64,000 nt of DNA from Promethearchaeota archaeon (GCA_048938105.1 JBHLMN010000014.1:64001-128000), one strand, 5' to 3'; positions 1,888 through 27,408 are shown, counted from the first letter of the stretch. The notes: generated by a model not told the origin, from the sequence alone. Program-made: numbers and translations.

Positions 1888-2195
1888 CCATCTGAAAATT
1901 CAGATAGATCCTCCGTCAATAGTAAATGACGGGTAATGCGTATTCCTAGACTTTGACCATCTAGGAAATCCGACTTCACCTCGACAATGATAACCAGGCT
2001 TTTTACAGCTAAACCACCAGGCCATACCCTTAGACACTTTTTAAGTATAGCCGATAGAGCATCGATCTGGTGCGGCAATCGAAGGTATCCTGACCTGGTT
2101 ATCGGAGTCAGCATTTCTACTCACTAAGTCTGGTGAACTTGAACTTCCTTTTTTTGTGATATAGAAGTTCCATCTAGAAGGATGGGGTAGTTCAC
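1888..2195 (-). ncRNA. omegaRNA (HEARO-like) scaffold of the IscB element
   Basis: The minus strand starts GTGAACTACCCCATCCTTCTAGATGGAACTTC, the typical IscB omegaRNA 5' end and hairpin. It is followed by GTTCACCAG closure, CATTGTCGAGG and several hairpins directly upstream of iscB. Confidence 0.85.
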
Positions 2196-2885: not shown

Positions 2886-3635
2886 ATGCCATTATTCAAG
2901 GGAAGTAAAACAAAGAAAGCTCAAGAGGAATTCGATGAAGGAATGGTTTTTTATGAGTCCCAGCGGTATGAAGAGGCCTTGGAGAAGTTTAAAGCTTCAG
3001 CCAAGCTCTTTATAGGGGGAGATCAAAAAAAATTGAGTCAAAGAGCCGAAGCGTACCAATCTTGCGCCTTAGGCTATATAAATGTACTGAATATGAATTT
3101 TCTTGAGGCAATTAGGTGTTTTGGTAAGGCAAATGTGATTTTCTCAACTGAAGGATTTTTAGAGGAAGCAAAACAAGCTAGAACCATTCAAGCCCAAACA
3201 CAAGGTGAATTGGCCAAGACTAAAGCTAGAGACGGGGAGTTTATAGAATCAGCCCGATTATATGAATCTGCAGGTGCTCTTTACCAGACAACGGGGTTAG
3301 AGATGGAAGCAGCACGAGCACGCGCCCGATCGTTTGTACAGAGAGCAGCTGCAATGGAATCGAATTCTGATAAAGCTTATTATTTGGAAAAGGCAGTAGA
3401 AGAGTTCAAGAAAGGGCGGGAAGATCCAACACGATATGAAGCACATGCATTATATCAACGAGCAAGGGCCTTAATCAGTGCACGAGAAAACGTTAAAGAA
3501 GTAATTGACCTTCTAGCCAAAGCTCATGAGAAATACCATAAGGTGGGAAATGATTCACAAACGGAAAAGGTTAAACAATTACTGAAAGATTTAACAGAAC
3601 AGGTGAAAACTCGCCCAGCCGAGTTCGGGATATAA
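2886..3635 (+). CDS. TPR-like alpha-helical protein, alpha-SNAP-like
   Basis: Helical repeats such as EAIRCFGKANVIFSTEG and ESARLYESAGALY. ATG start at 2886 preferred. Confidence 0.65.
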   Translation: MPLFKGSKTKKAQEEFDEGMVFYESQRYEEALEKFKASAKLFIGGDQKKLSQRAEAYQSCALGYINVLNMNFLEAIRCFGKANVIFSTEGFLEEAKQARTIQAQTQGELAKTKARDGEFIESARLYESAGALYQTTGLEMEAARARARSFVQRAAAMESNSDKAYYLEKAVEEFKKGREDPTRYEAHALYQRARALISARENVKEVIDLLAKAHEKYHKVGNDSQTEKVKQLLKDLTEQVKTRPAEFGI

Positions 3636-3670: not shown

Positions 3671-3734
3671 AGCCAATGATGACAGCTTAGGGAACAGACT
3701 TCTTTCAATGATGAACGATGAGCGGTCTGAGGCT
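3671..3734 (+). ncRNA. Box C/D guide sRNA (A)
   Basis: AGCC/GGCT terminal stem; C ATGATGA 3676-3682; 12-nt guide; D' CAGA 3695-3698; C' ATGATGA 3708-3714; 12-nt guide; D CTGA 3727-3730. Confidence 0.85.
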
Positions 3735-15824: not shown

Positions 15825-16343
15825 ATGGGAAAAAGGCCTGCATACTGTTATTCTCGTGTAGACAGACCTCCTTACACGCGGAAAAAATTCATTAAAGGTG
15901 GTCCCGAGCCTAAAATTCGTGCTTTTGATTTTGGATCACCAGAAAAAGAATTCCCTTTGGAAATATCGTTGATCACTGATGAAAGATGCCAAATTTCTCA
16001 CAATGCCCTCGAAGCTGCTCGGATTCATGTTAATCGATTTTTAACACGGAAAATTGGGCGAGATAACTACCATTATCGTGTTTGTGTTTATCCCCATCAT
16101 AGAATACGTGAGAATAAAATGATGACTGGCGCTGGAGCGGATCGTTTGCAAGATGGTATGCGTAAAGCCTTTGGGAAAATTATAAGTGTTGCAGCTCGTG
16201 TTTTTGAAGGAGATCGAATTTTATTTATCAGAACTTATCCAGAGAATTTAGCTTTAGCCAAAGATGCACTCCGTCGCGGAAAAGCTAAATTTCCTACCCC
16301 CTGTCGTATTAAGATCACGAAAGGACAAGAATTAGTGATGTAA
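15825..16343 (+). CDS. rpl10e: Ribosomal protein uL16 (L10e)
   Basis: RPAYCY, ALEAARI and GAGADRLQDGMRKAFGK motifs. Confidence 0.97.
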   Translation: MGKRPAYCYSRVDRPPYTRKKFIKGGPEPKIRAFDFGSPEKEFPLEISLITDERCQISHNALEAARIHVNRFLTRKIGRDNYHYRVCVYPHHRIRENKMMTGAGADRLQDGMRKAFGKIISVAARVFEGDRILFIRTYPENLALAKDALRRGKAKFPTPCRIKITKGQELVM

Positions 16344-16612: not shown

Positions 16613-16703
16613 CAACATGATGAAACTGACCTAAACTGAGACGGGTTCATGCTTGGACACCTATTGAATCCGTTAATGATGTCCATGTACCTCACTGATC
16701 GTT
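16613..16703 (+). ncRNA. Box C/D guide sRNA (C), D guide complementary to SSU rRNA GAGGUGCAUGG
   Basis: C ATGATGA 16617-16623; guide AACTGACCTAAA; D' CTGA 16636-16639; 9-bp insert stem ACGGGTTCA/TGAATCCGT; C' ATGATGT 16676-16682; guide CCATGTACCTCA; D CTGA 16695-16698. Confidence 0.85.
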
Positions 16704-16774: not shown

Positions 16775-17143
16775 ATGTGGGTTCTATTGCTTGAATTGAA
16801 GCAAGTAATAATTCTTCGAAAAGATTTACGGATGTCCAAAGGAAAAGCTGCAGCTCAAGCATCTCATGCTGCTGTTGCAGCGGCCATTAAATCAAAATAT
16901 GATAAACCAAACGAATTCAATTTATGGTGGAACACTGGACAGAAAAAGGTTGTATTAGGAGTAAATTCTGAGGCTGAATTAGTGGAACTTGAAAACAAAC
17001 TTAAGCCTACTGGAGTTGTTGTTGTAAGAATCGATGATGCAGGGAGAACTCAACTCCCTCCAGGCACAACAACAGCGTTAGGGGTAGGACCTCATGCCCA
17101 AAAAGCTGTTGAAGAAATCACCTCAACATTAAAGCTGTTTTAA
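16775..17143 (+). CDS. pth2: Peptidyl-tRNA hydrolase Pth2
   Basis: RKDLRMSKGKAAAQASHA and DAGRTQ motifs. Confidence 0.95.
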   Translation: MWVLLLELKQVIILRKDLRMSKGKAAAQASHAAVAAAIKSKYDKPNEFNLWWNTGQKKVVLGVNSEAELVELENKLKPTGVVVVRIDDAGRTQLPPGTTTALGVGPHAQKAVEEITSTLKLF

Positions 17144-27088: not shown

Positions 27089-27166
27089 GGATCCGTGGCT
27101 TAGCCAGGATAGAGCGGCGGCCTTCTAAGTCGCAGGTCGGGGGTTCAAATCCCCTCGGATCCGCCA
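27089..27166 (+). tRNA. tRNA-Arg(UCU) with encoded CCA
   Basis: GCGGC-CT-TCT-AA-GTCGC in a complete cloverleaf. Confidence 0.95.
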
Positions 27167-27185: not shown

Positions 27186-27289
27186 GGACTCGTGGCTTAG
27201 CTTGGATAGAGCATCTGCCTCCTATTTCTAAATCTATATAAGTTGAAAGAGATAGCAGAGGGTCGGGGGTTCAAATCCCCCCGAGTCCG
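27186..27289 (+). tRNA. tRNA-Arg(CCU) with canonical 37/38 intron (27225-27253)
   Basis: TCTGC-CT-CCT-A|29 nt|A-GCAGA; relaxed BHB. Confidence 0.9.
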
Positions 27290-27305: not shown

Positions 27306-27408
27306 GGGCCCTTGGCTTAGCTTGGATAGAGCGCTTGCCTCCGGAGTAAAAGATTGGTTTCCCAAATATTCTCTACAGAGGTCGTGAGTTCGAATCTCAC
27401 AGGGCCCG
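27306..27408 (+). tRNA. tRNA-Arg(CCG) with non-canonical intron at 41/42 (27349-27376)
   Basis: Central helix GGAG/CTCT, bulges TA|A and AC|A. Removal restores the CTTGC/GTAAG anticodon stem. Confidence 0.85.

Follow-up and report, generated by a model that had tools for sequence, protein, structure and literature searches.

The box C/D small RNAs (sRNAs) of archaea guide the methylation of selected nucleotides of ribosomal RNA (rRNA). In the seven-species alignment of Dennis et al. (2015), position G1026 of the 16S rRNA is guided in four of the seven archaea (S. acidocaldarius sR6, P. calidifontis sR49, I. hospitalis sR310 and M. kandleri sR120), the neighbouring G1027 in none of them, and G1184 only by sR32 of Pyrobaculum calidifontis (PMC4644070). 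In eukaryotes, small nucleolar RNAs (snoRNAs) fulfil this function, and the published tables assign the yeast methylated guanosines Gm1271 (snR40) and Gm1428 (snR56) to one helix of the decoding centre, helix 34, with the equivalents Gm1328 (U32A) and Gm1490 (U25) in human, Gm1272 and Gm1431 in Arabidopsis, and Gm1266 and Gm1506 in Dictyostelium. Yeast snoRNAs may also contain conserved extra base-pairing elements, found mainly between boxes D' and C', which raise methylation by as much as five-fold (van Nues et al. 2011, PMC3116282); that of snR70 occupies the loop of a stem lying between the two boxes, and snR40 and snR56 belong to the snoRNAs with flanking complementarity (PMC3116282). No published description of box C/D sRNAs from Asgard archaea was found in our literature searches. 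We analysed a stretch of 64,000 nucleotides (nt) from a Promethearchaeota archaeon (G000:C9:64001-128000, where G000 is the host genome and C9 the contig; hereafter the window). It contains at positions 16617-16698 of the plus strand an element of about 82 nt, composed of boxes C, D', C' and D and of two 12-nt guides. From its sequence and conservation, this element would be, with a probability of about 0.88, a functional double-guide box C/D sRNA directed against 16S helix 34 in an archaeon of the Hodarchaeales (Heimdallarchaeia, Asgard).

Guides, targets and conservation of the sRNA

An initial annotation of the locus, made from the sequence alone, had described a box C/D sRNA with a complete set of C, D', C' and D boxes, which is borne out by the anatomy of the element (Table 1) and by its conservation in the genus. 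Alignment of both guides to the rRNA of the organism itself placed the best match of each, and its only long one, in the 16S gene. This gene is carried by the same contig (C9:1695-3919, minus strand); its 2225 nt exceed the 1478 positions of the model by about 750 nt, made up of AT-rich insertions that are either introns or expansion segments, and the target numbering used below refers to positions in the 2225-nt gene. The D guide forms 11 base pairs (10 Watson-Crick and one G-U) at positions 1734-1744, within GGAGGUGCAUGG (1733-1744), the complement that had been predicted, and this duplex is the only match of at least 9 bp in the available rRNA. Its N+5 nucleotide is G1737, Watson-Crick paired, which is the G preceding UGCAUGG that the rule had been expected to select. 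The best match of the D' guide consists of 9 contiguous Watson-Crick pairs at positions 1890-1898, within GGUAGGUCAGUA (1888-1899), and its N+5 nucleotide is the first G of AGGUC, G1892, also Watson-Crick paired. The annotation had suggested a pairing with an AGGUCAG stretch in helix 33; the target is in the 3' strand of helix 34, at the equivalent of yeast Gm1428 and human Gm1490. The two target sites are thus about 155 nt apart and on opposite strands of a single helix, the D target on the 5' strand and the D' target on the 3' strand. We take them to correspond approximately to C1051 (D) and A1197 (D') in E. coli numbering. In the alignment of Dennis et al. (2015), they are the positions G1027 (D) and G1184 (D') (PMC4644070).

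The 5' half of the host 23S rRNA, the 3' half of the 23S rRNA of a congener and the rest of the assembly contain no comparable match of the guides. Contig C9 also bears the positions 1-1422 of the 23S model, where the end of the contig interrupts the gene. Two stretches of about 300 nt that match only positions 2721-2973 of the archaeal large-subunit (LSU) model are found 18 kb apart on another contig of the host (C8:27759-28068 and C8:46367-46669). Such isolated LSU 2721-2973 stretches recur in congeners, away from the remaining 23S (two copies in G002:C65, single copies in G003, G010, G012 and G013); they may represent a 3' domain encoded apart from the rest, pseudo-fragments or an effect of the assembly. 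A full-length 23S gene in the metagenome-assembled genome (MAG) of one congener (G001:C57:307-3242) shows no BLAST similarity to the 5' half of the host 23S and was excluded as a probable contaminant of that MAG, the 23S on G001:C38 being of the expected type.

Among the other genomes of the genus, BLAST recovered the element in 19 of 20, with identities from 94 to 74%. A covariance model built from 19 sequences detected it in 20 of the 21 genomes that represent the genus and in no genome among the 61 from other genera of the class. In a scan of one genome per prokaryotic species, the MAGs that carried this sRNA bear the titles Candidatus Hodarchaeota, Ca. Hodarchaeum mangrovi and Ca. Heimdallarchaeota (including B3_Heim, bin6 and bin76), which places the host in the Hodarchaeales group of the Asgard archaea. 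From the alignment of the 19 homologues, we observe that the boxes are near-invariant and that the D' core ACUGACCUA, the D-guide stretch CAUGUACCUC and the word GGACAC in the loop of an internal hairpin are invariant. The sequence outside the boxes diverges freely, and the flanks and the lower part of the internal stem are variable across the genus. Variants of the D' guide (UACUGACCUAAA and UACUGACCUAUA) make 10-11 pairs with the target. In two genomes (G016 and G001), boxes C and D are GUGACGA and CCGA in place of AUGAUGA and CUGA, and the terminal stem reaches 8 bp; they are examples of the longer terminal stems seen in some members of the genus. The host genome encodes the partner proteins fibrillarin, Nop5 and an L7Ae-family protein (Table 1). 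The features of an archaeal C/D sRNA are present as regards the terminal C and D boxes, the internal D' and C' boxes with 12-nt spacers, the rRNA guides paired at N+5 and the partner proteins. The short D'-C' spacer able to form a kink-loop (k-loop) is replaced by a 36-nt hairpin, which represents a variant and does not bar the guide function.

Rfam detects no family over the locus at gathering thresholds; when these are relaxed, the matches are limited to snoPyro_CD (15.5 bits) and DdR1 (11.5 bits). The full layout, written as a strict regular expression, gave a single match in the 5.85-Mb genome and none in the reversed control, for a chance expectation of about 0.25 matches per genome. As this expectation is not negligible, the box pattern alone is not decisive and the case rests on the guides and on the conservation. 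The same figure, together with the position of the element between co-oriented translation genes, is what would speak for chance box-like words in an AT-rich spacer, or for a cis-acting kink-turn (k-turn) in an uL16/Pth2 messenger RNA, in both cases devoid of guide function. We regard such an origin as extremely improbable: across 20 species the conservation is limited to boxes, guides and hairpin, both guides fit one and the same rRNA helix, and guide and target co-vary across families and phyla.

Several observations nevertheless weigh against a functional double guide. The D' duplex is only 9 bp long in this genome, and in all members of the genus a G-U wobble occurs at position 7 of the D guide, two nucleotides from the D target, where the Thermoproteota guide described below has a C. 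The terminal stem is weak in this genome (3 bp), and the stability of the single-sequence fold of the sRNA is similar to that of shuffled sequences (z = 0.07). Finally, positions ~1423-2720 of the host 23S are absent from the assembly and were checked in the congener only, so that an alternative 23S target is less firmly excluded.

According to the known mechanism of this family, the sRNA would form a complex with L7Ae, Nop5 and fibrillarin and pair with each strand of helix 34 while the small-subunit rRNA is still nascent. The D guide would bring the G preceding UGCAUGG, on the 5' strand, into the fibrillarin site, and the D' guide would bring there the first G of AGGUC, on the 3' strand. With both strands held at once, helix 34 would be kept open and its halves near each other during assembly, which would give the sRNA a chaperone-like role. 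We infer its expression, its assembly into a ribonucleoprotein (RNP), the actual methylation and this chaperone role. The sRNA could also be mainly an assembly chaperone of helix 34, one or both guides being non-methylating. The two targets being the strands of one helix, binding must precede the formation of this helix, and the G-U wobble near the D site and the short D' duplex go in the same direction; moreover, chaperone roles have been proposed for double guides at structurally close sites (Dennis et al. 2015, PMC4644070) and conserved guides with an N+5 mismatch are described (Lui et al. 2018, PMC6009581). However, the N+5 pair is a Watson-Crick G-C pair for both guides in every lineage examined, the exact register is kept across the Hodarchaeales, two other Heimdall families and the Thermoproteota, and eukaryotes methylate exactly these two nucleotides. 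A chaperone in which one or both guides do not methylate is considered unlikely in comparison with a methylation guide.

The element is located in a 431-nt gap between the genes of the ribosomal protein uL16 and of the peptidyl-tRNA hydrolase Pth2, the latter being followed by an eRF1/Pelota-like gene, all on the plus strand. The coordinates of the sRNA, of its neighbours, of the partner protein genes and of other RNA features of the window are collected in Table 1.

Table 1. Coordinates of the sRNA and of the other features considered. Positions are those of the window unless a contig (C) or genome (G) is given.
Feature	Position	Strand	Remarks
Weak 3-bp terminal stem, 5' half (AAC)	16614-16616	+	Pairs with 16701-16703; read from the sequence
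Box C AUGAUGA	16617-16623	+	UGAUGA in 18 of 19 aligned homologues
D' guide AACUGACCUAAA	16624-16635	+	12 nt; target 16S GGUAGGUCAGUA, helix 34, 3' strand
Box D' CUGA	16636-16639	+	Invariant in the genus alignment
D'-C' spacer	16640-16675	+	36 nt; read from the sequence
Internal hairpin	16640-16674	+	Stem 16640-16649 with 16665-16674 (10 bp); loop 16650-16664
Loop motif GGACAC(C)	16655-16661	+	Complement is 16S GGUGUCC, positions 1767-1773 of the host 16S, helices 36/37
Box C' AUGAUGU	16676-16682	+	UGAUGU invariant in the genus alignment
D guide CCAUGUACCUCA	16683-16694	+	12 nt; target 16S GGAGGUGCAUGG, helix 34, 5' strand
Box D CUGA	16695-16698	+	Present in 18 of 19 aligned homologues
Weak terminal stem, 3' half (GUU)	16701-16703	+	Read from the sequence
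uL16 gene	15825-16343	+	
Pth2 gene	16775-17143	+	
Fibrillarin gene	C38:46963-47619		
Nop5 gene	C38:46089-46766		Nop domain; adjacent to the fibrillarin gene
L7Ae-family gene	C46:76099-76350		
Thermoproteota sRNA family, ~62 nt	Loci L148-L159, ~position 1460-1565 each		G405, G422, G430, G438, G454, G470, G478, G486, G494, G510, G526, G542
Compact C/D sRNA candidate	3671-3734	+	AUGAUGA, then CAGA, then AUGAUGA ACGAUGAGCGGU CUGA
HEARO RNA (RF02033)	1969-2195	-	108.8 bits; guide-like RNA tied to IS605-family (IscB/HNH) elements
Transfer RNA (tRNA) genes of 103-104 nt	27186-27289, 27306-27408	+	Probably intron-bearing
tRNA gene of 75 nt	27089-27163		Beside the two preceding genes

Equivalence to eukaryotic sites and distribution in archaea

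Both guides are predicted to select nucleotides that are methylated across eukaryotes (yeast Gm1271/human Gm1328 for D; yeast Gm1428/human Gm1490 for D'). The identification of the D site with Gm1271 (snR40) and human Gm1328, which the initial annotation had advanced, is confirmed by the cross-species tables and by the register of the yeast sequence. The local yeast sequences GGGUGGUGGUGCAUGGCCGUU and CAAUAACAGGUCUGUGAUGCCC were obtained from the antisense oligonucleotides of Yang et al. (2016), and in the D-site context GGUGGUGCAUGGCC of the same oligonucleotides three U-x-G registers fit Um1269 and Gm1271. Only the register in which G1271 is the G before UGCAUGG also places a C at position 1280. 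This position is presumably the N4-acetylcytidine ac4C1280, and it was used on this assumption to fix the register of G1271. For the D' site, the oligonucleotides of Yang et al. (2016), tiled as 50-mers, put yeast position 1428 at the first G of CAGGUC. The alignment of the archaeal with the yeast sequence is gap-free from GGUGCAUGG to AACGAACGAGA, AGGUC being common to both. The yeast sequence itself also puts 1428 at the first G of CAGGUC, and the same count lands Gm1572 and the 7-methylguanosine m7G1575, which we take to be modified there, on G residues. The Rfam model DdR1, a Dictyostelium snoRNA, aligns to the C-to-D' half of the sRNA in the same register (GACCU, 3 nt, CUGA), with 11.5 bits for a gathering score of 70; we infer that DdR1 is the RNA called CD1. 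Beyond boxes and guide, the Rfam models reveal no sequence homology to eukaryotic snoRNAs.

Pattern searches were carried out in 399 Asgard genomes and detected the two-guide form in this genus only; as these searches require near-canonical boxes, such absences are weak. Guides to the same 16S G were found in two other Heimdall families (f3 and f7). In the first (G043, locus L067, G043:C114:98-119), the guide CCAUGCACUACG faces GGUAGUGCAUGG in the 16S of the same genome. In the second (G068, locus L068, G068:C213:7373-7394 and the next 30 nt), the guide ACAUGCACCAGU faces GCUGGUGCAUGG, and a second guide, at D, has its complement GCCGUGAAC in the 3' strand of helix 34. Both RNAs are compact and carry the guide to this G at D', whereas it is at D in the Hodarchaeales. 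Since the guides of the three groups all select the same G, each fitting its own 16S, this co-variation of guide and target supports the guide function. Three matches to the D' guide pattern within the class (G048, G074 and G076) have no second box pair, are coding-like and were attributed to chance.

Outside the Asgard archaea, Ca. Geocrenenecus dongiae has a compact sRNA whose D guide ACAUGCACCUCA selects the same G, in a MAG without 16S gene. Of the 151 genomes sampled from the phylum of Ca. Geocrenenecus (Thermoproteota), 13 match the pattern of a guide to this G, for 0 in the control, and 12 of these 13 constitute one family with the consensus AUGAUGU, (G/A)AACUGACCUGCU, CUGA, GAG-N5-8-CUC-N-A, UGA(A/G)GA, (C/U)CAUGCACCUCU, CUGA. 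The guides AACUGACCUGCU and CCAUGCACCUCU of this family fit GGCAGGUCAGUA and GGAGGUGCAUGG in the 16S of the same genomes. Position 3 of the D' guide co-varies with the rRNA, A facing U in the Hodarchaeales and G facing C in the Thermoproteota. This family is not mentioned in the literature consulted, and the Rfam query made with the Hodarchaeales sRNA gave no family for it. The gene adjacent to one of the sRNAs (L150) has homologues labelled Thermoproteota or Nitrososphaerota archaeon, and Bathyarchaeota at about 50% identity. A search for AmoA in five of the Thermoproteota genomes gave no match, a result of little weight as the control also matched nowhere. In the euryarchaeal phylum that was sampled, that of a Methanoregula MAG, none of the 121 genomes matches, an absence that is likewise weak, as this pattern also demands near-canonical boxes; D-guide matches in Methanoregula, Nitrosopumilus and G201 were rejected as chance.

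These results modify the evolutionary interpretation. The initial annotation had proposed a special Asgard counterpart of a eukaryotic target and had noted that a wide use of the site in other archaea would lessen its interest. The survey found this use, with the two-guide sRNA in 12 of 151 Thermoproteota and the single guide in Ca. Geocrenenecus. Because the same double guide also exists in the Thermoproteota, the link to the eukaryotic sites is not Asgard-specific; the modification pair, or a strong selection for it, therefore probably predates eukaryotes and is not a Heimdall innovation. The distribution being patchy, the double guide may have been inherited from an ancient ancestor, have converged on a hot spot or have been transferred. 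We give about even chances to the idea that the shared eukaryotic sites and the Thermoproteota layout derive from convergence on a methylation hot spot (or from horizontal transfer) and not from common descent. It agrees with the two-guide form being limited to one genus among 399 Asgard genomes and to 12 of 151 Thermoproteota genomes, with 0 of 121 in the euryarchaeal phylum, and with the change of position of the guide between D' (f3 and f7) and D (Hodarchaeales). In addition, the neighbouring G is targeted in four of seven well-studied archaea, for which convergent guide evolution has been reported (Dennis et al. 2015, PMC4644070), and, as the target dictates the guide sequence, the likeness of guides is no proof of homology. 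On the side of common descent, the sRNAs of the Hodarchaeales and of the Thermoproteota share the two target nucleotides, the order of the guides, the registers and a stem placed directly after D', and the covariance model of the former aligns the latter end to end, with 34-39 bits and the interior of the hairpin deleted. The two families differ by the spacer (12-14 nt with a 3-bp GAG/CUC mini-stem and no GGACACC loop in the Thermoproteota, a 36-nt hairpin in the Hodarchaeales), by the C' box (UGAAGA or UGAGGA in the Thermoproteota), by position 7 of the D guide (C in the Thermoproteota, U in the Hodarchaeales) and by the neighbouring genes.

The hairpin between boxes D' and C'

The annotation had attributed the length of the RNA, above that of typical archaeal sRNAs, to a stem between D' and C', and the alignment indeed reveals there a covarying 10-bp hairpin. 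The stem begins directly after box D' and stops three nucleotides before the GA of box C', and the length of the spacer differs by only about two nucleotides across the 19 aligned homologues. Compensatory changes are observed at 7 of the 10 pairs; 89% of the cells are paired, versus at most 46% when the 3' partner is slid, the covariation score is reached by no shuffle, and RNAalifold independently recovers the stem. The top three pairs (UCA/UGA) and the loop are conserved in sequence and do not covary. Within the 15-nt loop, GGACAC is invariant and the final C is present in 18 of the 19 homologues. This expanded hairpin with an invariant loop is particular to this genus of the Hodarchaeales and is a new feature of eukaryote-like architecture. 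By analogy with the known layout of k-turns, the hairpin would turn the internal C'/D' motif into a stem-closed k-turn, and not into the k-loop of compact archaeal sRNAs.

At least three further C/D candidates of the host genome, all on the plus strand (C11:62650, C18:49195 and C20:25126), carry D'-C' hairpins, with spacers of about 36, 13 and 19 nt, so that the expanded internal stem is a recurrent trait of the sRNAs of this organism. A stricter full-layout scan of the genome retained only the present RNA and one more fully canonical sRNA (C11:157711, minus strand). A lenient genome-wide census of half-sRNAs was set aside: it returned mainly noise, many chance guide matches being drawn by the AT-rich insertions of the 16S gene. 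A compact candidate is also present in the window itself (Table 1).

The loop word has its complement GGUGUCC at positions 1767-1773 of the 16S, 22 nt downstream of the D-guide duplex and on the side that an antiparallel order makes reachable. With the neighbouring A, this complement extends to 8 nt (AGGUGUCC at position 1766), and the available rRNA contains no longer one for the loop. When 7-mers were drawn at random, 1.4-1.8% of trials gave a perfect complement no more than 60 nt from one or the other target (P ~0.015). The invariant loop could thus add a third, non-catalytic contact, to the GGUGUCC of the 16S just past the D target, in the manner of the extra base-pairing of yeast snoRNAs; our literature searches found no description of such elements for archaeal sRNAs. 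We propose this predicted contact only tentatively. The heptamer GGUGUCC has a second occurrence in the 16S, at position 385; the target site is invariant in the genus, which precludes a test of co-variation; the 22 nt between the complement and the guide duplex contrast with the immediate adjacency of most yeast cases; and the Thermoproteota version keeps both guides without the loop.

We slightly favour a loop that does not pair with rRNA and is instead a protein-binding or structural module (RNP protein site, processing or stability element) or a partner of another RNA. The conservation in sequence, without covariation, of the top of the stem and of the loop agrees with a module of this kind, as do the presence of the complementary heptamer twice in the 16S and the absence of the loop from the Thermoproteota homologue, which keeps both guides; likewise, the loops of the other hairpin-bearing candidates have no complement near their targets. 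Against such a module, the available rRNA has no complement of the loop longer than the one 22 nt away from the D target, which is in an antiparallel order that fits simultaneous contact, and the placement of the loop mirrors the extra base-pairing of the snR70 type.

Two other possibilities were examined for the loop and rejected. A third catalytic guide (GGACACC, 3 nt, UGA) was discarded, as its UGA pairs with the UCA at the top of the stem and as there is no C-like partner and no k-turn. Pairing of the loop with UGUCC at the junction of C' and the D guide, seen in the minimum free energy fold for this genome, was also discarded, the junction being variable in the genus. A possible half-sRNA of the host genome (contig C35, minus strand, about position 3022 of the reverse complement; UGAUGC GAGAGGACACCU CUGA) contains the word GGACACC in its guide and would select the bracketed G in GGU(G)UCC of the 16S; its upstream boxes are poor.

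Comparison with described sRNAs and snoRNAs

The sRNA of the Hodarchaeales shares with the archaeal double-guide C/D sRNAs the C, D', C', D order, the 12-nt spacers and the N+5 rule (PMC4644070, PMC6009581); as in these RNAs, the two guides are directed to sites that are close in the rRNA structure and the partner proteins are encoded in the genome. It differs from the compact archaeal sRNAs, which have a short k-loop spacer and measure 50-70 nt, by its 36-nt hairpin and its length of about 82 nt. The covariance model and the guide patterns can serve as an entry point to the annotation of C/D sRNAs in genomes of mesophilic Asgard archaea.

The hairpin makes this archaeal RNA a candidate both for extra base-pairing of the snoRNA type and for a C'/D' k-turn closed by a stem. 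The lineage of the host is the one that we take to be placed nearest to eukaryotes in the recent phylogenomic literature. The sRNA might be viewed as a transitional form between compact archaeal sRNAs and snoRNAs, in which an ancient double guide, later split in eukaryotes (U32/snR40 and U25/snR56), had gained a stem-closed k-turn with extra rRNA pairing, a scenario that we hold to be doubtful. If it were true, snoRNA-type accessory pairing would have arisen before eukaryogenesis in an archaeal lineage.

Like yeast snR70, the sRNA has a conserved element between D' and C', carried by the loop of the stem that separates them, with complementarity to rRNA close to the methylation site. In the yeast extra base-pairing, however, the complement is directly adjacent to the guide duplex, whereas it is here 22 nt away and the support is statistical. 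The eukaryotic snR40/SNORD32A (U32A) on the one hand, and snR56/SNORD25 (U25)/Dictyostelium CD1 on the other hand, guide the methylation of the two equivalent G residues of helix 34; eukaryotes devote a separate snoRNA to each site, and here one RNA would serve both. Gm1271 and Gm1428, common to fungi, animals, plants and Amoebozoa, thus have predicted archaeal guides, carried by a single RNA that would clamp both strands of the helix.

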